DNA of 64,000 bases, taken from positions 24,157 through 88,156 of the forward strand of contig JAZDKZ010000004.1 of assembly GCA_043802485.1 (NCBI GenBank), in the 5' to 3' direction. A program made the translations under genes and the position numbers. Under the pieces are notes generated by a model that ran no database searches, had not been told where the DNA came from, and worked only from the letters and a program-made list of their open reading frames with translations. Shown piece by piece: positions 40,101 to 59,704 of this stretch. Position 1 is the first letter of the stretch, and each line of letters begins with the position of its first letter. This stretch comes from Candidatus Aenigmatarchaeota archaeon. GTDB lineage: Archaea; Aenigmatarchaeota; Aenigmatarchaeia; Aenigmatarchaeales; Aenigmatarchaeaceae.

Positions 40101-40103
40101 TTT

Positions 40104-42810: not shown

Positions 42811-42843
42811 CATTTTAAATTCTGGGTTTTCCATATTGTTAGT

Positions 42844-44328: not shown

Positions 44329-44410
44329 TCTTTAATCTAAGAAGACAAGCTTTAAATCCTAAACGGAAATTGTGTTTAAATCTTTTTGGAATTTAATCTT
44401 TATTGATATT

Positions 44411-44740: not shown

Positions 44741-44804
44741 AACCTTTATTTATTTAAGTGATTGTAAGATTTTAATAAAGAAACCATTGTAACCATTATC
44801 TGAT

Positions 44805-45014: not shown

Positions 45015-45026
45015 AATGATGATAAT

Positions 45027-45065
45027 ATGGTCTTTCTAACCTTCTACGGCGGCGCTTAGAAATCG
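45027..45065 (+). repeat. Gene-start repeat R1
   Basis: ATGGTCTTTCTAACCTTCTACGGCGGCGCTTAGAAATCG (MVFLTFYGGA*). Confidence 0.92.
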
Positions 45066-45071
45066 AATAAC

Positions 45072-45233
45072 TTATTCTTTAATCGGCCTTGCAAGGCTTT
45101 TCAGCTGGGAGTCCACGACCACCTTCTGCTGCATGCTCCAGTCAGTGTCTGGATGGGTCCTGACATAGTCTGCCCACTTCTCCACGAACCTCATCCTCTG
45201 CTCGCTGTTTTTCTCCCTGTCGAACACTTTCAT
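45072..45233 (-). CDS. Small partner protein of nucleotidyltransferase (53 aa)
   Basis: Manual translation MKVFDREKNSEQRMRFVEKWADYVRTHPDTDWSMQQK...; ATGA overlap. Confidence 0.7.
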   Translation of the reverse strand: MKVFDREKNSEQRMRFVEKWADYVRTHPDTDWSMQQKVVVDSQLKSLARPIKE

Positions 45234-45796
45234 TCAAGCATCTCCCTGTACTTGCCTAATAATTTATGGTCTATATTGCTCTTAAAAACAGTCTCCAGAT
45301 GCCTGGCGTCCTCCATGTCCTTCTCCGATTTCAGCACCTTCTCCTTGTACGCTATCTGCAGCTCGATGCTAGATATCCTTATCTTGCCAGTCTTCATGAC
45401 CACACCTATTGCTGTGGCAACGGCCTTCTTTTCGACGGGGTTCTTCACGAACTTGAGCTCCATGTTGGGTATCACATTCGGCTTTTTGGCGAACCTCACC
45501 GCAAGGCCGCCGAGCAGCGCACCCATAATCCCGTCAACGCTCTCCGCCTCCAGGCACCAGTAGCCATTATCCTTCAAATCAGAATAGAGGCTTTTGAATT
45601 CATCCGCGTTCATTTTTTCTATCAAAATGTCTATGTCCTCAGTGGCCCTTGACCTGCCGAACAGTATCGAGACGTACCCGCTCACTATGACGTAGCCTGC
45701 GTGCTTCTCCAACACCTTTACGAAATCAACCACAAACTTGTCCAGCAGCGTCGGCACCTTATCCAGCTTGATGGTCTTTCTGTCGATGAATTCCAT
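45230..45796 (-). CDS. Nucleotidyltransferase-fold protein
   Basis: VSGYVSILFGRSRATEDIDIL, KEKVL..EKDMEDA. Confidence 0.82.
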   Translation of the reverse strand: MEFIDRKTIKLDKVPTLLDKFVVDFVKVLEKHAGYVIVSGYVSILFGRSRATEDIDILIEKMNADEFKSLYSDLKDNGYWCLEAESVDGIMGALLGGLAVRFAKKPNVIPNMELKFVKNPVEKKAVATAIGVVMKTGKIRISSIELQIAYKEKVLKSEKDMEDARHLETVFKSNIDHKLLGKYREMLE

Positions 45797-45852
45797 GCTT
45801 CAACCTTTTGATATTTAAATCGCGGGACAATTTAAACCATAGCTGACTGGAA

Positions 45853-45908
45853 GTGGTGAATTTTTATTGTAGGTCTCTCTGACATTCTACGGCGGCGGCA
45901 GGGAAATC
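45853..45908 (+). repeat. Gene-start repeat R2 with promoter, internally deleted
   Basis: GTGGTGAATTTTTATTG joined to AGGTCTCTCTGACATTCTACGGCGGCGGCAGGGAAATC (VSLTFYGGGREI). Confidence 0.92.
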
Positions 45909-45969
45909 TTAAAGCCTGGATTTTCTAGTTAAACTTTTATCGTTTGCAGCATCATATAATCTTGATTGT

Positions 45970-47238
45970 ATGGGTTTTCTGGACGGCATTTTCGGTGGCA
46001 AGAAGGAGGCCCCGAAGGAGAAGAGGGTCTCGCTAAAAGATACAGAAAAAATAATATCAGACAAAGCAGAAAAGGCCTTCGAACCCCTGAAGGATGCTGC
46101 CAAGAAGGAGTACGAGACCTTCCAGACGTCTGCGACCGCGATGCAGGGCCAGCTGAAAATCCTTGAGCAGGCTGCCCTTCATGAGAGGACCTTTAGCGGC
46201 ATTGCAAGCAGGTCAACGGCAAGCAGAAGGGACTTTATCGGCAGGATGGACTTTCTAATCAAGAAGCTGCGCGCACCCTTTGGAGAGAATGCGGATTCCA
46301 TCATAAGCTTCTACGAAGAGGCCAACAGGACGATCAACACCGTGAATGCTGAAACGATAAAGGACTATGCCTTTCTCAAGATGGTTTTTGAAAAGGAGGG
46401 AAAGGATGTCCTGCAGAGCTTCCGGCAGATATTCGAAGCGAACAAGAGCATGGGGGAAACGGTAAAGGAAATCAGGAAGCACCAATCAAAGCTGTCGAAA
46501 GCAAGGGAGTGTGTCGCTGAGATTTCAAGGATGGCCCATGAGATGAAGGAGGACGAGACCGGCAGGCTGAACGAGAGGCTCTTGGCAAAGGAAGCCGAGC
46601 TCAGGAAGGCCGAGAGCGGAATGGAAGAGCTACTTCGCGAGGACGCATGGAAGGCCTTTCTTGAGATGCAGAAAACCAGGGACGAATTGAAAAAAGAGAT
46701 GGAAAACAAGGAAGCCGAATTCACGGACCTCATTTCTGAACTGGAAGTTCCTCTGAAGAAATACAGACGATTGGCCGAGAACAGCGTTCTTAATCATTAT
46801 ATAGAGAAATCTTTCTACTCGGTCCTGCATGAAGACCCGGATGGTGAAGTTCTTCTGTCCGCACTCAGGGACATGAAGTTAAGGATGATCGAGGACAAGA
46901 TGGCGCTGAAGGGCGGCGACAGGTTCATGACAGTCATAGACCGCGCGAAGGAGGGCAACATCATGGGAGGGATTCTCAAGGAATATGCAAGCACTGCCGA
47001 TAGGTTGAAAAAACTGGAAGAGGAGATGGGACTGCAAAAAGTCCCCAGAAGGAAGGGGATGTTCGAGAAGGATATCAATAAGCTTAAGGCGGAGCGCGAG
47101 GAACTGAGAGCTGGAATTGAAAAGTCCGAAGAGAGCAAAAAGAGATTGGTCGAGAGCAGGGAACAGAGAATAAGGGAACTGGAAGAGCTGCTAAGCGAGG
47201 CTTCCGGAGAGAGAATCCTGCTAGAAGTCAACAATTAA
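45970..47238 (+). CDS. Long coiled-coil protein
   Basis: 422 aa, MGFLDGIFGG amphipathic start, heptad repeats. Confidence 0.8.
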   Translation: MGFLDGIFGGKKEAPKEKRVSLKDTEKIISDKAEKAFEPLKDAAKKEYETFQTSATAMQGQLKILEQAALHERTFSGIASRSTASRRDFIGRMDFLIKKLRAPFGENADSIISFYEEANRTINTVNAETIKDYAFLKMVFEKEGKDVLQSFRQIFEANKSMGETVKEIRKHQSKLSKARECVAEISRMAHEMKEDETGRLNERLLAKEAELRKAESGMEELLREDAWKAFLEMQKTRDELKKEMENKEAEFTDLISELEVPLKKYRRLAENSVLNHYIEKSFYSVLHEDPDGEVLLSALRDMKLRMIEDKMALKGGDRFMTVIDRAKEGNIMGGILKEYASTADRLKKLEEEMGLQKVPRRKGMFEKDINKLKAEREELRAGIEKSEESKKRLVESREQRIRELEELLSEASGERILLEVNN

Positions 47239-47263
47239 ATCCCACTTCTTCCATAGTTTAGAT

Positions 47264-48871
47264 ATGAAGAAACTATCATTTTGTTTTATTTTATTTATCT
47301 CGTTCTTTTTGTTTTCCTCTATCGTTCTTGCTGACGGTGGTGCATATATACGTTCCACCTTTGAAACAGATGTGTGGCTACCTATTGGTCAAGACGAGCA
47401 AGTGTCTGTAATAACCTACGAGAACGGGAAGGAAAGCATGATTATTTCTATTGAGGCAGAATTGGAAAGCGGTGAAATAGCCTGGATATTCCCTATCCCA
47501 TCAAAGCCAGAGCAAACGAACATTGATATTGTGAAAGAATTCCCAGAGTTCAGCGGCTATGAAGTCAAAAGTAAGGTTGGCTACGAGTTCAACAGAGGTT
47601 ATCCGGCGTTTTACCTATCCCAAGTATATCCAATATTCTTAACTCTTTTCTCGGGTTATAGCATGGGGGCAGCTGGTGGAGGGCTGATAGACGGCGCCTT
47701 GCAAGATATAGCCGTTGAAATACACGAACATATAGAATACGGAGGGCTAACAACAGAGCTCGTAACTACAAAAGACGAAACAGAGCTTTATGCCTATATG
47801 CAACAAAAAAATCTAGACCTACCACCCGAATCGCTTTCAATAATAGAGGAGTACGTTGGCAAGGATTATTCATTCATTGTCTCTTGGATATCAGACGGCT
47901 TGGCTTATAGGGATGCGACCGGCGGGAATGTTTTGGGGGTAAAGGCAACATTTCCAACTAATGACATATTTTATCCTTTGAGGCTGACTTCAATATACGA
48001 CGAAACGAAAATACCGATGACAATTTATGTGTCTGGCCATGTCAGCCCGAATGTTTTCAGCGAGATAGATGATTACACCGATGTAAAATATTATGGCGGT
48101 GACAAGGATTACACAAAAATTAATATAAATTCAGAATCGAGATTCTTTGTAGATGATCTTTGGATGAGCAGGTCTGTACCGATAGATATACTAATAGCTG
48201 ACATCATACTGATTAGCCCTACGGCATTCTTGGTTTTTGTCTTTGTAACAGTTTCTATTCTGTCAAGCATCATCGCAGGGCTTATTATCTATAAGGATGA
48301 ATTTTCCTTGAAGAAGTTTGCCTTGCTCGGGCTTTCAAACCTGTTAAGTATTGTCGGGTTCTCAATAGCATCTATTCTAGCATTTAAATCTGAAAGGAAA
48401 GGCGACTTGAAACTGATCCTGTTGTCTTTTGGCCTGTCGGTTGCTCTTCTTGTTTCTGCGTTCATGCTGTCAAATGCTTTGCTATTAATCGTCTCAATAA
48501 TTGCTTTTGCTGTTTCGTTCATTGTCATGATTTCGGTATTGGGAAGTAAAGCGGTGTCATTGTTCATACTTATCTTTAGCATATTGTTCTTAACCATTTC
48601 ATTCCTTGTGAGTTCCCTGATTCTTTCGGCTTATCCCCACACCACAGTAATGTCTGGTGTTATGTCCTTTGAATATGGCAGACATTATGGATGCATGCAG
48701 TATCTAAGGAATAATTGTTTGGACTCGGATGAGATACTGTTACAGATAGACGCAAATCAAAACGGACGTATGGACAGCGGCGACACCCTACAAGCATTAG
48801 CTGAAATTTATTATGGCTGCGATCCTGGCGTAGAGGAATGTGTAAGACAACTTTGTGGTTGCAACGTTTAG
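47264..48871 (+). CDS. DUF2330-like extracellular domain plus multi-TM membrane protein
   Basis: Signal peptide ADGG, WIFPIPSKP, FYPLRLTS, about 5 TM helices, Cys-rich tail. Confidence 0.7.
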   Translation: MKKLSFCFILFISFFLFSSIVLADGGAYIRSTFETDVWLPIGQDEQVSVITYENGKESMIISIEAELESGEIAWIFPIPSKPEQTNIDIVKEFPEFSGYEVKSKVGYEFNRGYPAFYLSQVYPIFLTLFSGYSMGAAGGGLIDGALQDIAVEIHEHIEYGGLTTELVTTKDETELYAYMQQKNLDLPPESLSIIEEYVGKDYSFIVSWISDGLAYRDATGGNVLGVKATFPTNDIFYPLRLTSIYDETKIPMTIYVSGHVSPNVFSEIDDYTDVKYYGGDKDYTKININSESRFFVDDLWMSRSVPIDILIADIILISPTAFLVFVFVTVSILSSIIAGLIIYKDEFSLKKFALLGLSNLLSIVGFSIASILAFKSERKGDLKLILLSFGLSVALLVSAFMLSNALLLIVSIIAFAVSFIVMISVLGSKAVSLFILIFSILFLTISFLVSSLILSAYPHTTVMSGVMSFEYGRHYGCMQYLRNNCLDSDEILLQIDANQNGRMDSGDTLQALAEIYYGCDPGVEECVRQLCGCNV

Positions 48872-48930
48872 ATATGGTCTCATTGACATTCTACGGCGGC
48901 GTCAAGAAAAAATGGGTTTAAATTGTTTTG
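48866..48930 (+). repeat. Gene-start repeat R3 plus downstream TATA
   Basis: GTTTAGATATGGTCTCATTGACATTCTACGGCGGCGTCAAG (MVSLTFYGGVK). Confidence 0.95.
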
Positions 48931-48945
48931 TTTCGAATTCTTCTT

Positions 48946-49191
48946 ATGCCAGAACTGGATGAAAAATGTCTAATTATGTTAGAAACCGTATATCAAGGCG
49001 AAAAGCCCGTCACTTTGGGACTTTTGTATGGAAGAACAAAACCAACGACCTACCCAACAATGATGAAAAGACTGGATGAAATGCAAGAGGCTGAGCTGAT
49101 AGAAGTGAAACGACTAGATTGTATGACGAAAAAATATGAGATAACAGACTTTGGGATTGAAGTTATGGAAGAGTTAATGAAAAAGTCTTAG
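48946..49191 (+). CDS. Winged-helix protein
   Basis: TYPTMMKRLDEMQEAELIE...KKYEITDFG. Confidence 0.7.
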   Translation: MPELDEKCLIMLETVYQGEKPVTLGLLYGRTKPTTYPTMMKRLDEMQEAELIEVKRLDCMTKKYEITDFGIEVMEELMKKS

Positions 49192-49255
49192 TTTTTTCCT
49201 TTACCCTCTGTTCTCTGAAAATGGGTTTAAATGTTTTTGTGTTCTTTAACTAAAT

Positions 49256-49480
49256 ATGGCTGAAGAAATTAAAAGAGTTCTCAAATACTGTTCAAATTCT
49301 CCTATGGACAAACGTTTCTGTATTTCGATGAGTAGATTATCAGAGATTATAGAAGAGTTAAAGGAATTAGATTACAAAAGTCTTGAAGACGTCTATAATT
49401 ATGCTAAAAATCTTGATCTTCCTGAAGAATTTAAAGAGGAATTAAAATTTGAATATGAAAAAAGAGGGTTTAAATCCTGA
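49256..49480 (+). CDS. Hypothetical protein
   Basis: 74 aa with own TATA. Confidence 0.55.
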   Translation: MAEEIKRVLKYCSNSPMDKRFCISMSRLSEIIEELKELDYKSLEDVYNYAKNLDLPEEFKEELKFEYEKRGFKS

Positions 49481-49492
49481 TTCTTCTATAAT

Positions 49493-49897
49493 TCAATCCA
49501 AATCTATGGTAATGTTCTTGGGTGTCATCATTTCATAAACATCAGAGAAGAATTTTTCTTCTTTTTTTCTGGGGAGTTCTGCCCCATCATGTCCATAACC
49601 ACAAGAACGGGATACTTCCTCCAGAATAGACGTGCTTATTTCCTGCACAGAAACATACTCTTCTTGACATTCAAACAATCCTTTAACGAACTCTGTCTTG
49701 CCATCTTTCTCTATTGAAAGAGCACAACTAATTATTTTTCTCTTCATAGTGCTTTTCGCAGTTCCTCTCCTAGCAAATCCATAGTTCACACAACAGCTAT
49801 CAATGATGTCAGTCATGCTCATTTTCTTTCTTTTTTGGATTTCCTTAAAGATGTAATTAGTCATTTCTTTAGTGGAAGGGTAAGACGATCCTTTCAT
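49493..49897 (-). CDS. Hypothetical wHTH-like protein, paralog of 54397-54666
   Basis: Shared motif D[IV]ID...N[YF]G.A.RG..KS..KR.I. Confidence 0.65.
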   Translation of the reverse strand: MKGSSYPSTKEMTNYIFKEIQKRKKMSMTDIIDSCCVNYGFARRGTAKSTMKRKIISCALSIEKDGKTEFVKGLFECQEEYVSVQEISTSILEEVSRSCGYGHDGAELPRKKEEKFFSDVYEMMTPKNITIDLD

Positions 49898-49968
49898 AAA
49901 TAAAACAAGGTTGATAATTTATTTAAGCTTGAAATGTGTTTAAATTATTTTATGCTTTATTTCATAGT

Positions 49969-50241
49969 ATGAACAAGAATTTAAAATGGGGCTTGTCCTC
50001 TAATCAGAAGAAAGCTTTCGAAGAGATTTCTCGCAGTATAGGTGATGAGTATGATCACGGTTTGGAAGATGCCAAGGGGGTAGGAATCCATGGGGATGAA
50101 CTCAAGACTTATATGACGCTGTTCGTTCAAAATAAACTTTACATGTTTGAAAACGATAAATATACGATAACAGGTAGGGGACTAATTCTCTTTAACCAGC
50201 TTATGACTAATTCCCTGACAAAGGGTAGATACTGTTATTAG
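49969..50241 (+). CDS. Hypothetical protein (wHTH-like, YTITGRG)
   Basis: ATG 29 bp after TTAAA. Confidence 0.55.
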   Translation: MNKNLKWGLSSNQKKAFEEISRSIGDEYDHGLEDAKGVGIHGDELKTYMTLFVQNKLYMFENDKYTITGRGLILFNQLMTNSLTKGRYCY

Positions 50242-50256
50242 TTTTTATTCTGGTTT

Positions 50257-50308
50257 TTCCATAGTTTAGATATGGTCTCGTTAACCTTCTACGGCGGCGT
50301 CAAGGAAA
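50257..50308 (+). repeat. Gene-start repeat R4
   Basis: 37 nt from ATG 50272 identical to 58241-58277. Confidence 0.96.
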
Positions 50309-50314
50309 GGGGAC

Positions 50315-50770
50315 TTATTTCTTCTCCAGCCTTGTAAGGCTTTTCATTTTGGGATACATCCTTTTAAGGAACTTCACGACCTTTTCCGCGTAGACCCTGT
50401 CAAGTATGGTCCCGTAGTAGAGCATGCCGTTCCTAAAGTATCTCAGCTGGTCGGCAAACTGTACGTCCTTCTCGTCAAATTCAAGAACCCTCATGTAGGA
50501 CACCTCTGCCTCGTGAGCGCCCTGGCCAGAAGCGTTATAGCCTTCCAGGAGCATCTTGGCCCGCAGCATCTCCATGACTATGTCGTAGCACATCTTCACG
50601 AACAGGTTGGCATTGGAGTCATCAAGTTTAATCTTGACCAGCATCCTGAGAAGGCTTTTGTAGCTGTTCTCGGATTCCTTCAGCAGGAAATCTGCCCTTG
50701 ACTTGTCCCTGCTCTGCTTCTTGACAACACCCTCTTTTATAAATCCTTCGAATTTTCTTATTGCCCTCAT
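50315..50770 (-). CDS. HEPN-like protein (toxin partner of MNT)
   Basis: Helical; AHEA and LRYFRNGMLYYG; coupled to MNT gene. Confidence 0.75.
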   Translation of the reverse strand: MRAIRKFEGFIKEGVVKKQSRDKSRADFLLKESENSYKSLLRMLVKIKLDDSNANLFVKMCYDIVMEMLRAKMLLEGYNASGQGAHEAEVSYMRVLEFDEKDVQFADQLRYFRNGMLYYGTILDRVYAEKVVKFLKRMYPKMKSLTRLEKK

Positions 50771-51309
50771 AGCTCGACACCGCCTGATATCACTATGCCG
50801 TTGCACAGATTCTCCCTCAGGTTCTTGTGCACAGACCGGAGCGAATCATAAAAGTTCAGGTTTATTTTTCTTTCCAGCGCCCTTTCATAAGCAGCGAGAT
50901 CGGTTTTCTTGCCTTTTCTGCCGATTACTGCTACATCCACGTCCGAGTTCATCGTGTCCTCCCCTCTCGAGTAGCTCCCAAACAGTATGAGGGTAGCTCC
51001 TGCAAATTCCCTTTCCAAAAAGTCCGCAAGGCCTGTCTCGTATATCAGCATGAGATTGTCCGCGCGTTTCATCTGCATCGCCCTGTGGTCGTCTCTGTTG
51101 AGCTCGACAGACCACCTCTTGGTCGTCTTGTCCTGGCTTGACCTGACCATGCCTTCCATTCCCGGAAGCGACTTCATCACAGCCGGCTGGGAAACGCCCA
51201 GCAGGTTTGCAATCTGCCTTTGGTTGAGAGACGTTCCTGCCTTGACAAAGAGCAGCCTCAATATTTTCTGCTGCAGCACTGTCAGCCTGATTTTGTATAT
51301 ATTAACCAT
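50767..51309 (-). CDS. HTH-fused minimal nucleotidyltransferase (MNT antitoxin)
   Basis: LNQRQIANLLGVSQPAV HTH; LFGSYSRGED...SDVDVAV. Confidence 0.88.
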   Translation of the reverse strand: MVNIYKIRLTVLQQKILRLLFVKAGTSLNQRQIANLLGVSQPAVMKSLPGMEGMVRSSQDKTTKRWSVELNRDDHRAMQMKRADNLMLIYETGLADFLEREFAGATLILFGSYSRGEDTMNSDVDVAVIGRKGKKTDLAAYERALERKINLNFYDSLRSVHKNLRENLCNGIVISGGVEL

Positions 51310-51394
51310 AGTTTATATGTATTAACTTAAGTTTATATATGTTTCTACTTGACTAATTGCGCCATAGAAATATTATAGTTTTGTCACTTCTTCT

Positions 51395-51486
51395 GGTGGT
51401 AAATTTTTATTAGTGGCTCCTCAATTCTTTAGTATGGTATCCCTAACCTTCTACGGCGGCGTTTGGAAATCTGTTTAAATTGTTTT
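51395..51486 (+). repeat. Gene-start repeat R5 with upstream promoter and downstream TATA
   Basis: GGTGGTAAATTTTTATT...TCAATTCTTTAGTATGGTATCCCTAACCTTCTACGGCGGCGTTTGGAAATC. Confidence 0.95.
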
Positions 51487-51504
51487 GTTTTAAATATCTA
51501 ATTT

Positions 51505-51753
51505 ATGAAAGATGGCAAGAAAATGAGTTATAATGATGTTTTAGGGGCTTATGTTGGCAAAAAGGTAACTTTTCGTTTTATGGCGATGAATCTCCAAAAC
51601 ACCCACTCTATGGAAAAAATAGAGGGCCGTCTTTCCAAAGGACCTGTCTATTACACCGTACATGGGGAAAGAGCGGTGATGATGCTTGTTCCCGGCGCCT
51701 CAGGAGAGATAGAAGCAGGGGGCCAAAAATACGATCTTAGAGATTTGGTTTAA
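51505..51753 (+). CDS. Hypothetical protein
   Basis: 82 aa immediately after R5 TATA. Confidence 0.6.
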   Translation: MKDGKKMSYNDVLGAYVGKKVTFRFMAMNLQNTHSMEKIEGRLSKGPVYYTVHGERAVMMLVPGASGEIEAGGQKYDLRDLV

Positions 51754-51901
51754 ACGCGGGGTTTTTATCCTTAAGTTTCCCATGGTTTGAATCGGTTGAT
51801 TCTTGGGCTGATAAGATTGATTGTTTAGAATGGGGATTGTTGGAGCGTTGGTGGCTACTATAAGAATAAAAAGTTTTTTGTACCATTAAATAGTGAGATA
51901 A

Positions 51902-52624
51902 ATGGCCAATGAAAAGAATTTTCAGCCAACGTCTGAAGAGATAGAAAGGTCTTTCAAAGCTCTAGGCAAAGCACTTGACAACAAGACGCCTTTGGAAAAG
52001 TTTTTTTCAGGCTATAAAAGCATAGGGCTTCCTTTTAATTACGGCGACAAGAGTGTCATAACAAGTGTATATGAGATGGGAAGGGGTGTGACAATAGTAA
52101 GAGAAAGGCACATGGCAAGTGGTATGAATCATAGGATGATAAGAAGTGGCAGAAACCCAGAATATAGCAACGAACCATTTTCATGGGATATTTCTAATTA
52201 TTATGTGTTAAATGGAAACAAGTTAGTGATTGATGAAGAAGAGGTCAAGCAAATATTAAAAGACTCGACAGCTATAGACATGCCTGTCATTGAAGTTAGG
52301 AACGAACCCAGGCCGAACACATTGCACAGAAACTTTAATCCCGGGATGATAGTCACCAAAGTAACAGTAGATGAAAAGAATAGTTATAATCCAAGCTATG
52401 ATGAGTTTCATAAAGAAGAAAGGTATATGAGAAGCGAAATAAAATCCAAAGTCAGAAAAACGATCGAAGATGGCAGAAGCACTGGATTTATTGATGTTGA
52501 AAGGGAAGAAAAGCTTTCAAAAGTAACCGAAATTATGTATCCTGGTATGTTCAAAGAGATTTTAGATGAAATGAAACCGGACGAGGACATAACGCATCCT
52601 TTCCGCTCTGTTTTTGGATTTTAA
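51902..52624 (+). CDS. Hypothetical protein
   Basis: 240 aa ORF. Confidence 0.7.
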   Translation: MANEKNFQPTSEEIERSFKALGKALDNKTPLEKFFSGYKSIGLPFNYGDKSVITSVYEMGRGVTIVRERHMASGMNHRMIRSGRNPEYSNEPFSWDISNYYVLNGNKLVIDEEEVKQILKDSTAIDMPVIEVRNEPRPNTLHRNFNPGMIVTKVTVDEKNSYNPSYDEFHKEERYMRSEIKSKVRKTIEDGRSTGFIDVEREEKLSKVTEIMYPGMFKEILDEMKPDEDITHPFRSVFGF

Positions 52625-52643
52625 TTTTTTCTGAACTCATCTA

Positions 52644-52720
52644 GTGGTGAATTTTTATTGCGGTGTTATCAATTCTTTACTATGGTTTCATTAACCTTCT
52701 ACGGCGGTGTCAAGGAGATT
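52644..52720 (+). repeat. Gene-start repeat R6 with full promoter
   Basis: GTGGTGAATTTTTATTGCGGTGTTATCAATTCTTTACTATGGTTTCATTAACCTTCTACGGCGGTGTCAAGGAGATT; MVSLTFYGGVKEI with 5 synonymous changes. Confidence 0.96.
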
Positions 52721-52781
52721 TCGTTAGGTTACTACCGTAAGAATATGGAACGTATTTAAGTCAAATTTTTCCAATTAGATT

Positions 52782-53093
52782 ATGAAACTTTTATTGTCGG
52801 GGTTGTTGACAATGTTTCTGATATCAGGCTGCGTCACGATTCCTAAGAGTTGTCCGATTCTAAACCCTTCATACTGCGAGGTCGACTCGGACTGCATGTG
52901 CTCCACAACACCATGCTTCCTAGGCAACAAGGAGTATTTTGAGAAATGTGTACCTGACAAGTCTGTTCTTGGGTCTTGCCTCGACGCTTGCGGATTTGGA
53001 CCATATGGAATGGAATTCAGATACATCTGTGAAGACAGCCAATGTATAATTGCAACGTTTAACATGACGAATGGTCAGAGAATAAAGTCTTAA
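52782..53093 (+). CDS. Small Cys-rich secreted/lipoprotein
   Basis: ISGC lipobox-like, CEVDSDC, further Cys. Confidence 0.7.
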   Translation: MKLLLSGLLTMFLISGCVTIPKSCPILNPSYCEVDSDCMCSTTPCFLGNKEYFEKCVPDKSVLGSCLDACGFGPYGMEFRYICEDSQCIIATFNMTNGQRIKS

Positions 53094-53096
53094 ATC

Positions 53097-53141
53097 CTGA
53101 CCTTCTACGGCGGCGTCAAGGAAATCTGTTTAAATTGTTTC
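53097..53141 (+). repeat. Gene-start repeat R7 (5'-truncated) plus TATA
   Basis: CTGACCTTCTACGGCGGCGTCAAGGAAATCTGTTTAAATTGTTTT. Confidence 0.94.
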
Positions 53142-53158
53142 TTGTCGATAATCTTAGT

Positions 53159-53671
53159 ATGAGCATGAAAGTCTTGAAATATGTGCGCAAGGAAGGCGGC
53201 CTTGCAAGAGTAAAGGAAGTCAAGAATAGGTCAGGCCGCAATTCTAGAGTATTGAATGAGCTTAAGAGTGACAAGCTGATAAAGCCCATGCGCAGGAGGC
53301 CGTACATGCCCAAAGGCCAGTATGTCGTTATGACTGACGGTGGGTGGGACGCTGCAGAGGAAAAAAGCAGGCCTGGCTCTGCTGTCAAACCGAACAAGTA
53401 CATGCTAAAGATACTGAGCATATACGACAGGAACAAGGACAACACAAGGTTCCGCGTCAAGCTCAACGGAAAGAGCATAAAGGTCACCAGGGAAGAGCAA
53501 GCTTCTCTTGAAGACACGAACTATGTGTTCTCTACCAGAGGCGTATGGAACAAAAACAAGCGCGAGGATCTCACAGAAAAGCAAACTGAAAGCTTTGATG
53601 AAGCAGTAAATTACATGGCCCGCGTGTCCGGAATAGGCAAAGGCAAATACACCACTAAAACCGGGCTGTAG
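53159..53671 (+). CDS. Basic hypothetical protein
   Basis: ATG 29 bp after R7 TATA. Confidence 0.65.
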   Translation: MSMKVLKYVRKEGGLARVKEVKNRSGRNSRVLNELKSDKLIKPMRRRPYMPKGQYVVMTDGGWDAAEEKSRPGSAVKPNKYMLKILSIYDRNKDNTRFRVKLNGKSIKVTREEQASLEDTNYVFSTRGVWNKNKREDLTEKQTESFDEAVNYMARVSGIGKGKYTTKTGL

Positions 53672-53703
53672 TGTTTTTATTCTAGCTTTTTCATATTGAA
53701 ATT

Positions 53704-54288
53704 ATGAAAACTCTAATCCTAATTTTTATCCTAATGGCCTTTGGGATATTTACAGGAGTAATTTCAGACTTTTTTGTTCATGAAATGGGTCACTATACCT
53801 TTGCCTCGATTATCAACAGCTCTGCCATAGAGGGCGTGCGCTTCTACCCGGAAAGCCTGCTGGCAAGCCCCATTGAAAACAAGATACAGACGTTTGCCAG
53901 GGTGAGCTACAAATCATCCATACTCGAATCGTTTGGCTTTCATGGCGGTTTGCTTGTAACCGTCGCTGGCTTCTTGTTCGAGGTTATATTTCTAGTCTCG
54001 CTTGTAGCCCTGGTCAAAAAGCAAAGGCATGGGAGAAGAGGCCTGACAGCCTTCCTGCTAGGGGCATTGCTGGGCGCGTTGATGGGCATAAGCGCCAGCT
54101 GGATCAACGACTTTATCTTTATCTTCTATACCCTGTCTGAAAACACGCTTGTGACTGGGGCAATGATAATTGCGATGCTGCTCACTATGATTTACCTGTC
54201 CGTGCACATCTTCCTCAAGGCCTCGTCCAAATTCTTTGGCGGATTGCTTCCAAGGCGCTTTAGGCGGCGCTCCTCACCCCGACGCTGA
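53704..54288 (+). CDS. M50-like membrane metallopeptidase
   Basis: VHEMGH in TM context, VAGF, ND motif. Confidence 0.7.
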   Translation: MKTLILIFILMAFGIFTGVISDFFVHEMGHYTFASIINSSAIEGVRFYPESLLASPIENKIQTFARVSYKSSILESFGFHGGLLVTVAGFLFEVIFLVSLVALVKKQRHGRRGLTAFLLGALLGALMGISASWINDFIFIFYTLSENTLVTGAMIIAMLLTMIYLSVHIFLKASSKFFGGLLPRRFRRRSSPRR

Positions 54289-54328
54289 CAGAAGTACGGT
54301 TGTTGACCGCACAAACAAATTTTATTTC

Positions 54329-54382
54329 ACGGTCTTATTGACATTCTACGGCGGCGTTTAAAATTAGGATTTAAATTGTTTT
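54329..54382 (+). repeat. Gene-start repeat R8
   Basis: ACGGTCTTATTGACATTCTACGGCGGCGTTTAAAATTAGGATTTAAATTGTTTT. Confidence 0.92.
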
Positions 54383-54396
54383 CTGTTGATTGTTTA

Positions 54397-54666
54397 TTAA
54401 ACATAATCTTGGCCAAGATAGTCTATATGTATCCACACTCCGTTTAAGAATTGTATTTCTCCATCTTTTCTGTGTTTTTCTAAATGGTTAAGTATATCCC
54501 TTTTTTTATCAGATTTATCCTTTCCTCTTGCAGCCAGGCCAAAATTGAATTTATAATTATCAATAACATCGGCTGTTGTCATTCCATTCTCTTTTTGTTG
54601 ATAAATTATTTTAAGAACGTGTCTACTTAATTCTTCTCCGGAAATATGGCTGTCTGCTCGTCCCAT
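54397..54666 (-). CDS. Hypothetical wHTH-like protein, paralog of 49493-49897
   Basis: Start MGRADS; shared motif. Confidence 0.65.
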   Translation of the reverse strand: MGRADSHISGEELSRHVLKIIYQQKENGMTTADVIDNYKFNFGLAARGKDKSDKKRDILNHLEKHRKDGEIQFLNGVWIHIDYLGQDYV

Positions 54667-54732
54667 AAAACAATAAAGAATGCTAAAAAATTTAAGCTTA
54701 AATTTTAAAATTCCCAACTATTCTTTGGTAAT

Positions 54733-54921
54733 ATGGATAATCTTCGAAGAAGAATCGACCCGTGTACAAGCAAGCAGAAAGGCGAATGCGTAATTTTCGG
54801 CGTTGACGGCAACTGCAACAACTGTGACATATACCAATCAAGATTATGGTCAAAAGTGATTGGGTCATTAAGTCCTTACAAATCCGCCAATGAAACTGTG
54901 ATAGAAGGATTGGTTGTTTAG
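54733..54921 (+). CDS. Small Cys-containing protein
   Basis: 62 aa, C..C..CNNC. Confidence 0.5.
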   Translation: MDNLRRRIDPCTSKQKGECVIFGVDGNCNNCDIYQSRLWSKVIGSLSPYKSANETVIEGLVV

Positions 54922-54930
54922 TCCCTTCAT

Positions 54931-54973
54931 TTAACCTTCTACGGCGGCGTTTGGAAATCTGTTTAAATTGTTT
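54931..54973 (+). repeat. Gene-start repeat R9 (5'-truncated) plus TATA
   Basis: 42 nt (54932-54973) identical to R5 51444-51485. Confidence 0.94.
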
Positions 54974-54990
54974 ATTTTCTAATAAAGAAT

Positions 54991-55551
54991 ATGTTTTCAC
55001 TAAATCCATCATTCAGAATAGTCCGCTATAGTCCTATAACTGCAGCTTTTGGTAGTGTGAAGTATCAATTTGATGGTCCGTTTAGTCTCGGGAATTTAAC
55101 CCAAGAAGTAGGAGAGGTTGTAGAAAGCATAGGATATTCTTTAAAGAGGGCTTATGATGTGAAAACAACAATCGAACAACCCAAGATAAACATCTTGTCT
55201 ACTAGAGTAACTCCAATAAGTTCTGAACTTAACAAAAGGGAATTTGATTTAGACCTAAGATATGTCGGCAACCAAGGATTGATGGAAAGGATTAAGACAG
55301 TCTGTACGAAGATGTTTTTGGAGAAAAAGGATAATGCCATATTGACTCGAAACGACAAAAGGGGGTTTTATTTTTTCCACAACCTGAAGGAAAGTTTTGA
55401 TCCCGTATCAACTGGAAACCTGCTGAAAGCAACAGAGTCAATTTTACTTAAAGATGCGGGGCAGAGACTAGAAACTGTCAAATCAGAAATACAGCCCGAT
55501 TATCTAGAAGTTGACATTGAGATAAGGGAATTTAAAAATTACATAGTATGA
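54991..55551 (+). CDS. Hypothetical protein
   Basis: 186 aa, ATG 28 bp after R9 TATA. Confidence 0.65.
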   Translation: MFSLNPSFRIVRYSPITAAFGSVKYQFDGPFSLGNLTQEVGEVVESIGYSLKRAYDVKTTIEQPKINILSTRVTPISSELNKREFDLDLRYVGNQGLMERIKTVCTKMFLEKKDNAILTRNDKRGFYFFHNLKESFDPVSTGNLLKATESILLKDAGQRLETVKSEIQPDYLEVDIEIREFKNYIV

Positions 55552-55628
55552 AATGCTCTTTGATTCAGCACACTTTCTTCTTGCAGACTTTTAAGAATAA
55601 ATAAAATTGGAGCGTTGGTGGATGCTGC

Positions 55629-56294
55629 TTAAACGTTCAATTTTCTTATTATAACAGGCACATGTCTCAAGTCGTTTACAACATAATCTGCGGCATGTCT
55701 CACTTTTTCTGAACCAGGACGGTATGCTATGCTGTGTTCTGCTATTTCAAAGGATTCCAGCTCGTTCTCATGGTCGCCAATCATCACAACGCCTTTGTAT
55801 ACCCCGTTATCGTCGGGCTTTATGCCGAACCTGCTGCATACATCAATCATATTCTGCTTCTTGTCCCACAGAGGAACATTGTTTTTTCCTTTTCCTGTAT
55901 AGTAACCGTTCTCATGAAGCAGGTCGTTGCACTCGCAAAATTTCATATCCAATTCATCTGCTATGTGCCTTGCCGGCGGGTTTGTTCCTGCCGTAATCAG
56001 ACCTACAATCAAACCCATTTCGTTTAGCTCGTGCACAGCCTCCCTTGCGCCGTCCGAGTAGACGGGGGGCAGTACTTTAGTTTCCACTGCTTCAACTGAA
56101 ACGCCTTTCAGAAGGGCACATTCCTTGTCAAACCATTCGTTGTAAAGATGCGGTCTGGGAAGGTAGTATTCGAGCAGTTCTTTGGCCTCATCAAGCATGC
56201 CGGCTGCATAGAGAACAGCGTCCCAGCTGGAACCGTACTTTCCATGGGGGTAGTTGATTGTTGTCCCGTCCATGTCAAAGAAAACCAAAGACAT
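55629..56294 (-). CDS. HAD phosphatase, phosphoserine-phosphatase-like
   Basis: FFDMDGT, SSW, ITAG, K, IGDHENE. Confidence 0.85.
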   Translation of the reverse strand: MSLVFFDMDGTTINYPHGKYGSSWDAVLYAAGMLDEAKELLEYYLPRPHLYNEWFDKECALLKGVSVEAVETKVLPPVYSDGAREAVHELNEMGLIVGLITAGTNPPARHIADELDMKFCECNDLLHENGYYTGKGKNNVPLWDKKQNMIDVCSRFGIKPDDNGVYKGVVMIGDHENELESFEIAEHSIAYRPGSEKVRHAADYVVNDLRHVPVIIRKLNV

Positions 56295-56336
56295 AGAAGA
56301 ATAATGCATCCTAAATCTTAAATTCTGATACTTGCT

Positions 56337-56386
56337 ATTCTTTACTATGGTATCTTTAACCTTCTACGGCGGCGTTTAAAGAGATA
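56337..56386 (+). repeat. Gene-start repeat R10
   Basis: ATGGTATCTTTAACCTTCTACGGCGGCGTT-T-AAAGAGATA (MVSLTFYGGV, +1 nt, KEI). Confidence 0.94.
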
Positions 56387-56441
56387 GATTAAATAACGGG
56401 ATTTTCTATAAGCATAAAAAGTTTTTGTTACAATTTTTAGC

Positions 56442-56654
56442 ATGGACAAAAGCGAAACTTTTCAAAAATACAGGAGCGAGGGCTTGAGAGCAGTATTAGA
56501 CTTGTGCCTTGAAATGGCCAGAGAAAAAGGTATTAAAGATGAGTCCGTTGCCTATGAAACTTTCAGGGAAACGGCAAAAAAATTCATTCCTGATGCTACC
56601 GAGAAGGATGTTGCTAGAACAATAGAGGAATACGAGAAGATGAAGAAAGGATAA
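56442..56654 (+). CDS. Hypothetical protein
   Basis: 70 aa. Confidence 0.6.
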   Translation: MDKSETFQKYRSEGLRAVLDLCLEMAREKGIKDESVAYETFRETAKKFIPDATEKDVARTIEEYEKMKKG

Positions 56655-56768
56655 ATCCTTGTTTTTCTATATTCTCCAAACCACATCTGGCAGAGGATAC
56701 TTCGCAACTTCTGTTTCAGAGCCGCCAAATCAATTTAATTATACAAGCGAATTTATCTTAAGGTTTCT

Positions 56769-56966
56769 ATGAAAAAGTCAAAAAACAGGCAAAAGGCCCT
56801 GTCGCTCTTCTCCAAGGAGGCCATGAAAAGGCTTAGGAAGGACAAGTTCAATGGACGCCTGATCGTCCTGTGGGAAAACGGAATGGTAAAGGACTTTAAC
56901 CTCAGGACGAACTTTAGGTTCTTTGTGGGCAAGGCTAGAGAGGACTTTTTCATGGAAGACTTGTGA
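56769..56966 (+). CDS. Small basic protein (micro-operon gene 1)
   Basis: 65 aa. Confidence 0.6.
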   Translation: MKKSKNRQKALSLFSKEAMKRLRKDKFNGRLIVLWENGMVKDFNLRTNFRFFVGKAREDFFMEDL

Positions 56967-56975
56967 GGTGGTAGT

Positions 56976-57077
56976 ATGCTTGCGCTTAAAAGAAAGGGTT
57001 TCACGGACATGCACACTTTGAACCTATCGGAAGAGTATGAACTGGACCCGAAAGACGCGAACGAGGTGGAGATGTGA
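56976..57077 (+). CDS. 33-aa protein (micro-operon gene 2)
   Basis: SD GAGGTG; MLALKRKGFTDMHTLNLSEEYELDPKDANEVEM. Confidence 0.5.
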   Translation: MLALKRKGFTDMHTLNLSEEYELDPKDANEVEM

Positions 57078-57193
57078 CCATTAAGAAGAAGGTGAGGTTC
57101 ATAAGAAAACAGGTGCTGGACGAGATTTACAAGTACAAGGAAATCGAGAAGAGGAATCTGAAGGACGGATTAGCAAACAGAGGGTTCGGATGA
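57074..57193 (+). CDS. 39-aa protein (micro-operon gene 3)
   Basis: SD GAGGTG, GTGA overlap; MTIKKKVRFIRKQVLDEIYKYKE... Confidence 0.5.
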   Translation: MTIKKKVRFIRKQVLDEIYKYKEIEKRNLKDGLANRGFG

Positions 57194-57402
57194 ACAGGAA
57201 AATGAAATTTCTAAGATATTTGGTAGAAAGGAGAGAGATGTTCGTTCCATTGGACAACATTCCTGGTGGGAACATAGAGACAGCGGAAGCTCTGCTGCGA
57301 GAGGGAATGATAGGAGTGGAGAGACTGGAGAAGTGTATTAATTGCGTGCTATTGATAAGGGGGCACGAACTCATAGAAAGCGCCAAGAAAAAAGAGAATT
57401 GA
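57190..57402 (+). CDS. Small wHTH-like protein (micro-operon gene 4)
   Basis: ATGA overlap, 70 aa. Confidence 0.55.
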   Translation: MNRKMKFLRYLVERREMFVPLDNIPGGNIETAEALLREGMIGVERLEKCINCVLLIRGHELIESAKKKEN

Positions 57403-57451
57403 TTTTACTTCTAACGTCAGACTTTTATTCACGATTATATAAAATTCTAGT

Positions 57452-57490
57452 ATGGTCTCACTCACATTCTACGGCGGCGTTCGAGAAATT
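57452..57490 (+). repeat. Gene-start repeat R11
   Basis: ATGGTCTCACTCACATTCTACGGCGGCGTTCGAGAAATT (MVSLTFYGGVREI). Confidence 0.94.
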
Positions 57491-57509
57491 GTCTCAAGAA
57501 ATTAAATAC

Positions 57510-57833
57510 TCAAAGCGAGGGCACCATCAAAGGTATCTCCGTCTGCTCCCTGTTCGCAAACTTTAGCAGAATAACTATCAGAACAATCTCCTTTCCTGGC
57601 CTCAGGCGTATCTCCGCGTTCTTTATGCTCTTCAGAAGCTTTTTGGTGATCCTTTTCTTGTAGAGCTTTCTGAGCATCTTCGAGACGTCCATTATCTCTA
57701 TGCCGACAATGTTGCCATCGAAAGAATAGTCTATCACAAAGTCGTCCATCTGCATGCTGTCTTTGACCTTCCCGTCCTTGTACAGGAACAGTATGTCGTT
57801 CTCATAGTCATAGTCTATCTTTGCTTCAGCCAT
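57510..57833 (-). CDS. DUF2283-like putative antitoxin
   Basis: IDYDYENDILFL...FVIDYSFDGNIVGIEI. Confidence 0.85.
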   Translation of the reverse strand: MAEAKIDYDYENDILFLYKDGKVKDSMQMDDFVIDYSFDGNIVGIEIMDVSKMLRKLYKKRITKKLLKSIKNAEIRLRPGKEIVLIVILLKFANREQTEIPLMVPSL

Positions 57834-58159
57834 TTTTCATACACCTTCCTTCTCCTTTTGTTCTGGATGTGCGCCGTTACAATATTTATTTTGTCCTTCT
57901 TTATTGATATTATTATCCTCATGTCGTATCTGGACGATTTCTGTAAAAGCATCAGGTATTTGTGGCCCTTTGGCTCAAGGCCCTGGTCCTCAATCAAGAT
58001 TATTGAATCAACGTCTTTTATAGCCTTTAATATCTCGCCTTCATCTATATTTCTTTTTTCCGCCTTGACGCGATAATGGCTGCTAAAATTTATGCTGCCC
58101 CTGGTTATCCTTCTGCTTATTTTCATTGCGTCCTTGTCGCTCAACACGTCCTTCATCAA
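57815..58159 (-). CDS. DUF4258-like putative RNase toxin
   Basis: FSSHYRVKAEKRNI...INIVTAH; overlaps DUF2283 gene. Confidence 0.75.
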   Translation of the reverse strand: MMKDVLSDKDAMKISRRITRGSINFSSHYRVKAEKRNIDEGEILKAIKDVDSIILIEDQGLEPKGHKYLMLLQKSSRYDMRIIISIKKDKINIVTAHIQNKRRRKVYEKWLKQR

Positions 58160-58203
58160 AAGATATATGGTTTCCTGGAATTAAATTGCTGATTCACCCT
58201 TGG

Positions 58204-58240
58204 CGGTGAATTTTTATTGCAGTGTTATCAATTCTCTACT
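58204..58240 (+). promoter_or_regulatory. BRE/TATA promoter of beta-CASP gene (probably leaderless)
   Basis: CGGTGAA-TTTTTATT 23-30 bp before ATG; also retained in R2, R5, R6. Confidence 0.7.
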
Positions 58241-59704
58241 ATGGTCTCGTTAACCTTCTACGGCGGCGTCAAGGAAATCGGGGGCAACAAGATATTACTA
58301 GAAGACGATGGAACCAAAATATTTCTAGATTTTGGCATGAACTTTTCACAGCACGCCAAGTTCTTCACTGAATACATGCCGCCCCGCAAGAACTCGTGCA
58401 TAACGGACATGATGTTCCTGGGCCTATTGCCCAACATCAAAGGATTATACCGCCGCGATTACTGCAAGCACCAGGGCGCGGACCATAAAGAAGAAAATTC
58501 CGTGGATGGCGTCCTGATATCACACGGCCACATCGACCACGTGGGCTATGTCCATTTCCTTAGGAAGGACATACCCGTCCATGTAAGCCATGAAACCAAG
58601 GCGATAATGGAACTGTTTACCAGAACCGGAGCAGGCGGTTTCAGCGAGTTCTGCGACTTTAAACCGAGCTTTGAACTGATACCCGCAAAAACAGGCGGTA
58701 TGAAGAGGCGCGATGCCCGCGACGGAACGGAGAAGAGGGACGTCCGCACCTTCGAGTTCGGCAAAAAGTTCACCATAGGCAATCTGGAGATCGAACCCTA
58801 CCGGGTCGACCATTCCCTGCCCGGCGCGACCGGTTTCATAATCCACACCTCCGCCGGAGCCATAATCTATACAGGCGATCTGCGGTTCCACGGCCGCCAC
58901 AGGGACTGGAGCAACGCCTTTGTCTCGGCCTCGGCTGCGGCCGAGCCCGTGGCCATGATATCGGAAGGCACAAGGATCAAAAAGTCTGACAACAGGACCG
59001 AAGATTATGTCCAGAAGGAGAGCACCGACTGCATCAAAGGCAAAAAGGGCCTGGCCATAGCCAACTTCCCCATAAGGGACACTGAGCGATTATTGACCTT
59101 CTACCAAACAGCCAAGGCCAACCAGCGCAAGCTGGTCATAGAGTACCGGCAGGCCATCCTGCTGGACCTCCTGAAAAAGTGCGGCATTGACGGGCTGCCG
59201 GACTCGAAAGATCCGGAAATAAGGATATTCTACCCCAAAAAGAGCTGGGGTCTGATCGGCAGGAAGGACTTTGACCGGGAGCAGGTGGAAAGGGACTATA
59301 CGTCCTGGGAGAGGACGTACGCCTCGTCGGAGAACGTGATAGACGCCTGCGAGATAAGGGACCATCAGAACGGTTTTGTGATGTTCATGAACTATTTCCA
59401 GCTGAATAATTTGCTTGATTTGAAGCCTGTTTCGGGTAGTGTCCATATTCGAAGCATCTGTGAGCCTTTCTGCGAGGACATGGAGCTGGACCAGAAGCGC
59501 ATTAATAACTGGTTAAGGCTGTTCAAATTGTATCCTGAGAAAAAATTCCACTGCTCCGGGCATGCCACCGGTGACGCGATAGAGGGGATGATCAAAACGG
59601 TTTCGCCAAAGGCGGTGTTCCCCATACACACAGAGTATCCTGGGATTTTCCGGCGTTTCAACAAGTCAAGAATGGTTAAGTATGGGAAGTGCTACGAGAT
59701 TTAA
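58241..59704 (+). CDS. Metallo-beta-lactamase/beta-CASP nuclease (RNase J-like), 487 aa
   Basis: GGVKEIGGN, LDFG, SHGHIDH, VDHS, YTGDLR, EGT, HCSGHA, PIHTE. Confidence 0.92.
   Translation: MVSLTFYGGVKEIGGNKILLEDDGTKIFLDFGMNFSQHAKFFTEYMPPRKNSCITDMMFLGLLPNIKGLYRRDYCKHQGADHKEENSVDGVLISHGHIDHVGYVHFLRKDIPVHVSHETKAIMELFTRTGAGGFSEFCDFKPSFELIPAKTGGMKRRDARDGTEKRDVRTFEFGKKFTIGNLEIEPYRVDHSLPGATGFIIHTSAGAIIYTGDLRFHGRHRDWSNAFVSASAAAEPVAMISEGTRIKKSDNRTEDYVQKESTDCIKGKKGLAIANFPIRDTERLLTFYQTAKANQRKLVIEYRQAILLDLLKKCGIDGLPDSKDPEIRIFYPKKSWGLIGRKDFDREQVERDYTSWERTYASSENVIDACEIRDHQNGFVMFMNYFQLNNLLDLKPVSGSVHIRSICEPFCEDMELDQKRINNWLRLFKLYPEKKFHCSGHATGDAIEGMIKTVSPKAVFPIHTEYPGIFRRFNKSRMVKYGKCYEI

Follow-up and report, generated by a model that had tools for sequence, protein, structure and literature searches.

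Related cassette systems and the present locus

Several described systems stack or shuffle small accessory genes between repeats, and we compare them here with an array found in a 64,000-nt stretch of DNA (hereafter the window) from a Candidatus Aenigmatarchaeota archaeon, a tiny symbiotic member of the DPANN archaea. In this array the cargo genes are separated by stubs, i.e. displaced copies of the promoter and first codons of a single beta-CASP nuclease gene, which itself closes the array and is called the anchor gene below. In the T4-type phages RB49 and phi1, the cassettes called PeSL (promoter-early stem-loop) are reported to cross over at variable points in their promoter modules, including points between the -10 element and the ATG, and no dedicated integrase was found (Arbiol et al. 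2010, PMC2839356). The array would appear, by analogy, to work most like this PeSL shuffling. Both have co-oriented repeats between non-essential ORFans, promoter-bearing in the phages and promoter-like in the array, in both genes are gained, lost and swapped, and in both the strain differences map to the repeats. The array differs in that it sits in a cellular archaeal chromosome, its repeat includes the first 10-22 codons of the one protein gene that closes it, no terminator stem-loop was seen in the repeat, and the body of the gene is a hot spot of allele replacement.

The SXT/R391 elements at prfC and the elements at dusA are similar in another respect, since their inserts end with a replacement promoter and N-terminal codons (10.1101/2021.06.18.448947), as do the units here. 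As far as that source describes them, these elements are large, carry their own tyrosine integrase and have defined att cores, whereas the array consists of 11 units of 0.4-3 kb and no integrase was found for it. Of a crossover fixed at an att core the array has an invariant core (22 of 22 distinct stubs), yet in both strain pairs the switch lies to the left of it. Additive tRNA islands likewise grow by small cassettes, each with a partial copy of the target gene, and the cassettes are shared across genera (PMC7771536, PMC5217437); these reports name the 3' end of a tRNA as target and invoke site-directed recombination, whereas the target here is the 5' end and promoter of a protein gene. Integrons and CALINs, including archaeal ones, share with the array the small cassettes, the co-oriented repeats, the richness in toxin-antitoxin (TA) and orphan genes and the strain-variable order (10.1101/2022.02.06.479319). 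In the array, however, the repeats are copies of a gene start and its promoter. We do not regard it as an integron because no IntI was found, there is no attC-type site (an imperfect palindrome that folds into a bottom-strand hairpin, with GTTRRRY cores; the repeat here is coding sequence) and no polarity, with the newest cassette at the insertion site, is seen (n=11, low power), although a CALIN needs no IntI. It also differs from target duplication of the casposon or CRISPR kind, as the assembly has no Cas1 and the copies are synonymous alleles with their own promoters rather than identical duplicates.

Homology-facilitated illegitimate recombination combines long anchor homology with a joint at short microhomology. 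In Haloquadratum, DNA has been lost between short direct repeats (PMC3119063). Both processes normally replace or delete DNA at scattered sites, whereas the array is additive and focused on one gene start. Repeat-mediated additive cassette shuffling is a known kind of process, and what is unusual in this variant is a protein-coding gene as both the anchor and the source of the repeats in a cellular archaeon; our literature searches listed no paper on an array bounded by copies of the start of one protein gene. The locus bears on the question of how accessory genes are still acquired and rearranged in streamlined DPANN archaea that have few integrases or none. Moreover, it is a mappable case: there is one anchor gene, the junction scars can be counted, and there are strain pairs as well as a population living in groundwater and biofilm. 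Island finders based on integrases, attC sites or tRNAs would miss such arrays, whereas a scan for repeats of the first codons of a gene detects them.

The repeat array and its anchor gene

The anchor gene (58241..59704, + strand) encodes a 487-aa metallo-beta-lactamase/beta-CASP protein, an RNase J-like nuclease by its Pfam domains (Lactamase_B, RMMBL). Its first 28-40 nt recur as 11 stubs upstream, all in the orientation of the gene. The 16-mer ACMTTCTACGGCGGYG has 12 matches in the window, all on the + strand, where 0.00 are expected by chance (100 shuffles); the TTC of the core stands at 45042, 45885, 48889, 50287, 51449, 52697, 53103, 54344, 54937, 56362, 57467 and, in the gene itself, 58256. 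A reading made earlier from the letters of the window (the sequence-only reading) had claimed these 11 upstream copies; its positions and spacings are exact, and ACMTTCTACGGCGGYG matches at every core that it gave. It had also placed every copy between open reading frames (ORFs), with 1-5 accessory genes per interval, and this is borne out: all the stubs are intergenic and about 1-5 ORFs lie in each interval.

The repeat is specific to this locus. In the whole assembly of the host (G000; 768,849 bp in 7 contigs, 89% complete), ACMTTCTACGGCGGYG has no match beyond these 12 at 0-1 mismatch, so that there is no scatter elsewhere in the 769 kb, and allowing 2 mismatches adds one unrelated coding match. 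A profile of promoter plus stub finds only the 12 copies (E<=9e-10) and no weaker remnants, the next match having E=1.6. Among 797 ORFs of at least 80 aa, the anchor gene alone shares a 13-mer of its first 60 nt with more than 2 nearby sites on the same strand (11, against <=2 for the others). Public groundwater and biofilm runs from 2 studies yielded contigs of this region, and in three runs these cover all 30 bins. Those crossing the stubs at 45042, 52697 and 54344 do so without a differing letter, and contigs from both studies run across 54344 (among the runs, one may be that of the source sample); none of the 32 public contig pieces listed spans the whole array.

The stubs are not identical. 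The residues L-T-F-Y-G-G are intact in 11/11, whereas the ATG is kept in 7 and lost in 4, and K, E and I are found in 4, 5 and 4 of the 11, respectively. The strict match to the gene stops at nt 28-39, and decayed remains of it can be followed as far as about nt 40. Codons 2-5 vary synonymously, e.g. with five different Leu codons, around the shared invariant core, and for this reason we read the stubs, judging from their sequence, as descendants of different, once-working alleles. Stub 1 (45027..45066; all stubs on the + strand) reads MVFLTFYGGA followed by a stop and has kept its ATG, and in stub 2 (45855..45908) a type-A promoter remnant, of the kind described below, is fused to codon 2 and the ATG is lost. 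Stub 3 (48874..48906) reads MVSLTFYGGVK. Stub 4 (50242..50308) has a promoter and matches the gene over 37 nt. Both stub 5 (51398..51471) and stub 6 (52646..52719) have a type-A promoter, that of stub 6 being the closest to the gene's (36/40), and the right arm of stub 5 continues into GAAATCTGTTTAAATTGTTT. In stub 7 (53090..53126) the junction motif TTAAATCCTGA is joined straight to codons 4-13 and the ATG is deleted; in stub 8 (54329..54357) the ATG is mutated. The left part of stub 9 (54922..54959) is eroded and its right arm is as in stub 5. The junction/promoter motif TTAAATTCTGA stands ahead of stub 10 (56318..56387), and the left allele of stub 11 (MVSLTFYGGVREI; 57452..57491) is joined to other cargo in a relative (G002) and in public contigs. 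The stretch GTTTAAATTGTTT occurs 4 times in the assembly, each time directly after a stub and ahead of unrelated ORFs.

No age gradient was seen along the array: the similarity of stub and gene does not follow distance (rho -0.15 to +0.26, p>0.4; n=11, low power), and stub 4, with its 37-nt match, sits 8 kb away from the gene. The 12 copies have no shared fold (120-nt windows, both strands, z -1.9 to +1.7 against crude pair-shuffles), an Rfam scan of 36-64 kb gave no match, and a bacterial-type scan for terminator-like sites found 12 against 13.8 expected by chance, none of them common to the stubs.

The live promoter of the anchor gene is putatively of leaderless type and lies at 58201..58240 (+ strand; "type A", GGTGAATTTTTATTG). 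Its motif GGT[AG]AA[CT]TTTTATT occurs 4 times in the assembly, each time just ahead of a stub or the gene, and the cargo units terminate in a promoter followed by ATG GTN TCN. The repeat looks promoter-like in position and in sequence, lying between accessory ORFs in one orientation, and the regions upstream of the stubs would thus have leaderless-type promoter function. A specific origin of the cargo promoters from that of the beta-CASP gene is not shown, as ordinary ORF starts score alike (at least 8 with a promoter matrix from 18 relative sequences in 2/41 island and 17/861 other ORF starts). As a side observation, three + strand ORF starts on another contig of the same genome (C7, ~32500-39950) have the top matrix scores outside the array, and the region is possibly a second plastic one.

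The anchor gene is accessory and horizontally exchanged. It is present in 10/20 family genomes, at 38-69% identity, and in a tree of 28 rows (first 25 residues removed) the family alleles are polyphyletic, several well-supported clades being mixed with Woesearchaeota and Thermoplasmata sequences. The window allele clusters with a Woesearchaeota sequence (100/100) yet begins MVSLT, and nearly all family alleles begin M[VTA][ST]L[TA]FYGGV despite the polyphyly. Since MVSLT also starts 13/57 of the closest database proteins, the support from this conserved start is only moderate. The protein scores below the NCBIfam cut-offs for RNase J and aCPSF1 and has the motifs HGHIDH 95, H191, D213, E242, H441 and H463. 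We considered the nuclease as its own recombinase and find this unlikely, as its motif C residue is His, the RNA-specific state by the beta-CASP rule, and its closest structures are RNase J-like. In G016 the homolog (L050, 7094-9409) has a ~500-residue in-frame insertion near residue 190, possibly an intein, in a 775-aa open frame. In G004 the conserved 3' end of the gene recurs twice downstream of it, each copy being 36 codons long and beginning with an ATG (L039, 2921-3031 and 3842-3952), and G046 likewise has an ATG-started copy of the C-terminus (L053, ~2654-2785). These copies (36-44 codons across the two genomes, with the motif PIHTEYPGKFR) bound TA-type cargo and resemble one another more closely than they do the resident gene; they may be scars, in mirror image to the 5' stubs, or else mini-proteins that are expressed.

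The array layout is found in 3 of the 10 family relatives with the gene, plus one more genome. Whole-genome pattern scans gave two extra upstream copies each in G001 and G008 and one in G017; G002 has a single stub at a contig end, and 5 of 371 genomes of the class have at least 2 pattern matches. Of 22 metagenome loci, L058, L059, L064/L078, L068, L073 and L077 bear stubs (L058 and L073 are identical to G001), and stub length ranges from ~10 to 22 codons across genomes. Outside the family, no stub was found at 19 gene-bearing loci (11 + 8) with 0.4-16 kb of upstream sequence. The exception is G248, of another family, where two stubs lack the ATG and the 65%-complete assembly has no full gene; these stubs (L093, 1481-2680) flank a nucleotidyltransferase TA-like pair, and the contig may be a transfer or a binning error. 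A second match in L075 is a divergent second gene and not a stub. The survey of homologs and their upstream DNA which the sequence-only reading had proposed thus finds stubs in relatives, confined to the family save for G248, and its comparison of cassette order finds shared cargo in different orders and one strain pair differing by a whole stub-bounded unit. The repeat array is real, lineage-wide and dynamic.

Exchange of units and its possible mechanism

Comparison of strains shows that units are gained, lost and reordered, that the joints lie at stubs and at promoter-like motifs, and that the gene body is swapped for divergent alleles. One contig (L041, of G008) carries a 1005-bp unit made up of a 20-codon stub, cargo and promoter, which L064, the other member of this strain pair, is without; in L064 the promoter of the stub is joined to the coding sequence of the gene at about the ATG. 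In the second pair, L059 and L068 are identical through codon 2 and divergent from codon 3. It is conspicuous that in both pairs the flanks are 99.5% identical while the anchor gene is just 85.4% and 89.9% identical. In one stub 3 third-codon positions differ within 66 nt, whereas the flanks show 5 differences in 1627 nt, a pattern that gene conversion would give. L041 and L064 also differ by reordered, gene-sized blocks, whose breakpoints lie away from stubs, at ~16-bp microhomology in a motif TTAAATYYTGA-TTTT. Public contigs have alternative joins at stubs, e.g. 57481 to 49225 in both studies (the same junction as in G002), and further 45891 to 44057, 54826 to 58256 and 45849 to 51394; the contigs in question were placed at 88% likeness, their sides are short, and sister species may be their source.

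The strict form of the junction motif, TTAAAT[CT][CT]TG[AG], is promoter-like and has six copies in the window (39431, 42815, 43158, 49470, 53090 and 56318; 39431..56328, + strand). These make up 6 of its 8 matches in the assembly, all on the + strand between 39.4 and 56.3 kb, and the plastic region extends to the left of the first stub. In 8 regions from the relatives and the own genome, the TTAAATYYTGA-TTTT motif is strand-biased, with 47 copies on the + and 4 on the - strand (against 105 + and 75 - ORFs). After 22 of the 47 copies the next gene is on the minus strand, i.e. these copies look like orphan promoters, and in 12/47 the motif supplies a stop codon.

The sequence-only reading had proposed that units of cargo plus a fresh promoter and gene start were inserted serially, as in an integron. 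The part of this model that stands is that stubs bound exchangeable units ending in a promoter and gene start, as is seen in the 1005-bp difference, in the pairing of cargo and promoter in other genera and in the alternative joins; the mechanism looks more homology-driven than integron-like, although site-specific recombination retains some probability. Serial insertion solely at the live gene start is not supported, given the lack of a similarity trend and the well-matching copy 8 kb off, nor is a crossover fixed at codons 5-13, the switch lying at or before codon 3 in 2/2 strain pairs, and stubs are not the sole joints, as blocks break also at the promoter-like motif where there is no coding stub.

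We judge it somewhat probable that the locus is an additive cassette array that needs no integrase, shuffled by homology, with the gene body as the long anchor and the promoter/gene-start module as the short crossover site. DNA of a related cell would arrive carrying cargo, promoter and a beta-CASP allele, in this order. The gene body would pair with the resident gene, presumably by means of RadA (which is present in the own assembly), and would often be partly replaced, as the divergent alleles between nearly identical flanks show. A second crossover would fall in the short homology of promoter and start: in the junction motif, which is TATA-like, at the ATG, or in codons 5-9, whose GC-rich core would be common to the resident start and a donor stub. 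The old promoter and first codons would remain upstream as a stub, and the gene would be given a new promoter and start. From then on, crossovers could also fall in stubs and in bare promoter copies, with gain, loss and reordering of units at any point of the array. Erosion of the stubs would proceed from their cargo side, and a stub would stay usable only as long as its core is intact, by which the core would be kept invariant. The first stubs were probably created either by joins at microhomology, which would be rare events, or from a second, tandem copy of the gene that suffered an internal deletion.

A number of points weigh against this homology-driven shuffling. A homology of 13-16 bp is short for RadA, and no DprA that would point to a route of DNA entry was found in the own assembly. 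The core TTCTACGG is intact in 22/22 distinct stubs across genomes (two of them found with a pattern fixing those letters), the decay sets in sharply after nt 28-29, and genome-wide TTCTAC makes up just 38% of the Phe-Tyr pairs and GGCGGC 18% of the Gly-Gly pairs; a recombinase core would account more simply for an invariant TTCTACGG. The junction regular expression was tuned on the same loci in which it was counted, three of the eight regions overlap, a looser form gives only 2 + and 2 - matches in the window, and the motif resembles ordinary promoters elsewhere in the genome. The strain pairs are two in number, and allele swaps that came later may account for where they switch. Finally, the 89% completeness of the assembly limits the negative results for recombinases.

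PF00589, PF00239, PF16795, Cas1 and IS110 have no match in the own assembly, a hidden Markov model (HMM) from 10 family integrases gave nothing better than E=0.057 there, and tblastn from these integrases gave no match; the earlier remark that the window holds no integrase can be extended to the whole 89%-complete assembly for these five families and the family-integrase HMM. Such searches bear on the view that a tyrosine recombinase supplied in trans, from a virus, a plasmid or an unassembled locus, inserts circular units at TTCTACGG in the 5' end of the gene, each stub being an attL-like junction as in prfC- and dusA-targeting elements. Because the core is invariant, we leave this sequence-specific recombinase a minority share of the probability, and should the 8 invariant bp prove to be the target of a specific enzyme, the recombination system would be a new one. 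The sharp right boundary of the stubs agrees with it, as does a weak inverted repeat flanking the core (TTGAC...GTCAA, stub 3, seen by eye), and the ending of units in promoter and start is what has been reported for dusA and prfC elements (10.1101/2021.06.18.448947). TTCTAC is found in 8/11 family genes, and outside the family in 2/11 genes with TFYGG (Fisher p=0.03; codon bias and kinship confound this test). At the DNA level the core codons of the 11 family genes show no clear excess of constraint over other invariant codons (F 0.91 vs 0.64-0.82). PF00589 has a match in 14/20 family genomes, and archaeal integrases with homology-type activity have been described, the pTN3 integrase being able to recombine short homologies too (PMC8371274). 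On the other side, among the stub-richest genomes G000 and G001 have no integrase and G008 a sub-threshold match only; no family genome has PF00589 on a contig bearing the gene or a stub; the core pattern is absent at 12 integrase loci and has 0 matches in viral contigs. The promoter-only breakpoints and the 3' stubs would moreover demand further sites. A fixed-site integrase is not supported, because no recombinase was found in the 89%-complete assembly, there is no age gradient, the gene body is divergent, switches lie left of the core and some breaks are in promoters only.

A dedicated archaeal cassette system, in which a non-IntI enzyme (TopIB or a recombinase beyond the Pfam models) recognises TTCTACGG and/or the promoter junction and moves the units, seems doubtful to us; it would be a DPANN analogue of integrons with a protein gene's own start as att site. 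One candidate for such an enzyme is a eukaryote-like topoisomerase IB (TopIB), a relative of tyrosine recombinases, encoded inside the plastic region (35005..36753, + strand), which would cut at CTT/AAAT-type junctions and join foreign DNA. The junction does resemble TopIB cleavage consensi, but it fits a TATA box equally well. The gene is rare (6/61 relatives, 4 of those in the family) and lies upstream of the array in the same orientation in G000 and G017, and in G008 via the overlap with L064; stubs are found in 3/3 scorable genomes with TopIB and in 2/7 where it is negative (one-sided p=0.08; related genomes are not independent). However, G001 and G002 have stubs and no TopIB was found in them, G003 has TopIB and no strict junction motif in ~38 kb around it, and the neighbours of TopIB vary like any other cargo. 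We hold it to be very improbable that TopIB is the array's integrase. The stubs could also be inert scars, left after whole beta-CASP genes, together with neighbouring cargo, had repeatedly been taken up in tandem and deletion had spared only the ends of the redundant copy; they would then have no part in later shuffling. The variable length of the 5' stubs and the ATG-started 3' stubs do look like internal deletions, the anchor gene is often transferred, and promoter remnants follow the same cargo in other genomes where no coding stub does. Neutral deletion leaves unexplained, however, that 11/11 cores are intact and that the ends cluster at nt 28-40, and it does not fit the conversion-like changes within a stub, the alternative joins at stubs or the right arms common to stubs with unrelated cargo (GTTTAAATTGTTT); we hold it to be improbable. 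It is barely conceivable that the array is an assembly artefact in which repeats collapsed and the cargo of several strains was concatenated. Heterogeneity of the population at the stubs speaks for this, as does the lack, among the contigs listed, of one that crosses the whole stretch. On the other hand, no two repeats are identical and none is longer than ~40-90 nt, contigs run over three stubs exactly, and independent genomes have the same layout.

Cargo and adjoining sequences

The locus is likely a hot spot at which TA, defence-like and orphan genes are sampled while the anchor gene stays whole. Cargo families, including TA-type ones, recur across relatives in different order, and in other genera the promoter type that follows recurring cargo is often unchanged, whether a stub is present or not. 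None of 93 scanned cargo ORFs is a recombinase (93 of 132 listed; those omitted are mostly short or downstream). The GC content of the units ranges from 0.34 to 0.48 across the array.

Cargo 1 (45072..45796, - strand) is a pair of 188-aa and 53-aa genes with a weak PADLOC match (PDC-M21B); by its layout it would be TA-like, and homologs are present in G008, G017 and L064. Cargo 2 (45970..48871, +) comprises a 422-aa coiled-coil-like ORF, which by visible C-terminal similarity has a homolog in the G002 array, and a 535-aa DUF2330 membrane protein. Four small ORFs form cargo 3 (48946..50241); the 74-aa MAEE ORF among them directly follows a stub in G002. Cargo 4 (50315..51309, -) is an HTH-nucleotidyltransferase (MntA-like) with a putative HEPN partner, resembling a type VII TA. 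Orphan ORFs of 82, 240, 103, 170, 194, 62-106 and 186 aa, with no Pfam match at cut-off, make up cargo 5-9a (51505..55551). Cargo 9 (55629..56309, -) is a HAD-family hydrolase that ends KILE, which is not derived from the junction motif; in L064 (10144) and G001 (L052) the hydrolase is reversed, and its last residues before the stop (KIRI and KIKI) are read from the reverse-complemented motif. Several small orphan ORFs form cargo 10 (56442..57402, +). Cargo 11 (57510..58159, -) is a DUF4258 and DUF2283 pair, a putative TA; both families recur in the arrays of L059, L064, G008 and G017.

Directly after the anchor gene follows a low-GC block (59720-64000) with a MazG-like protein, a neighbour of the gene also in G008, G009 and L064, and two Schlafen group 3 helicases, the second of which is a strong PADLOC match (PDC-S41). 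To the left of the stubs, the non-coding stretch 43158-43492, upstream of rpoK, has no Rfam or tRNA match and is 78.6% identical over 350 nt to G002; it is possibly an unannotated RNA or a regulatory region.

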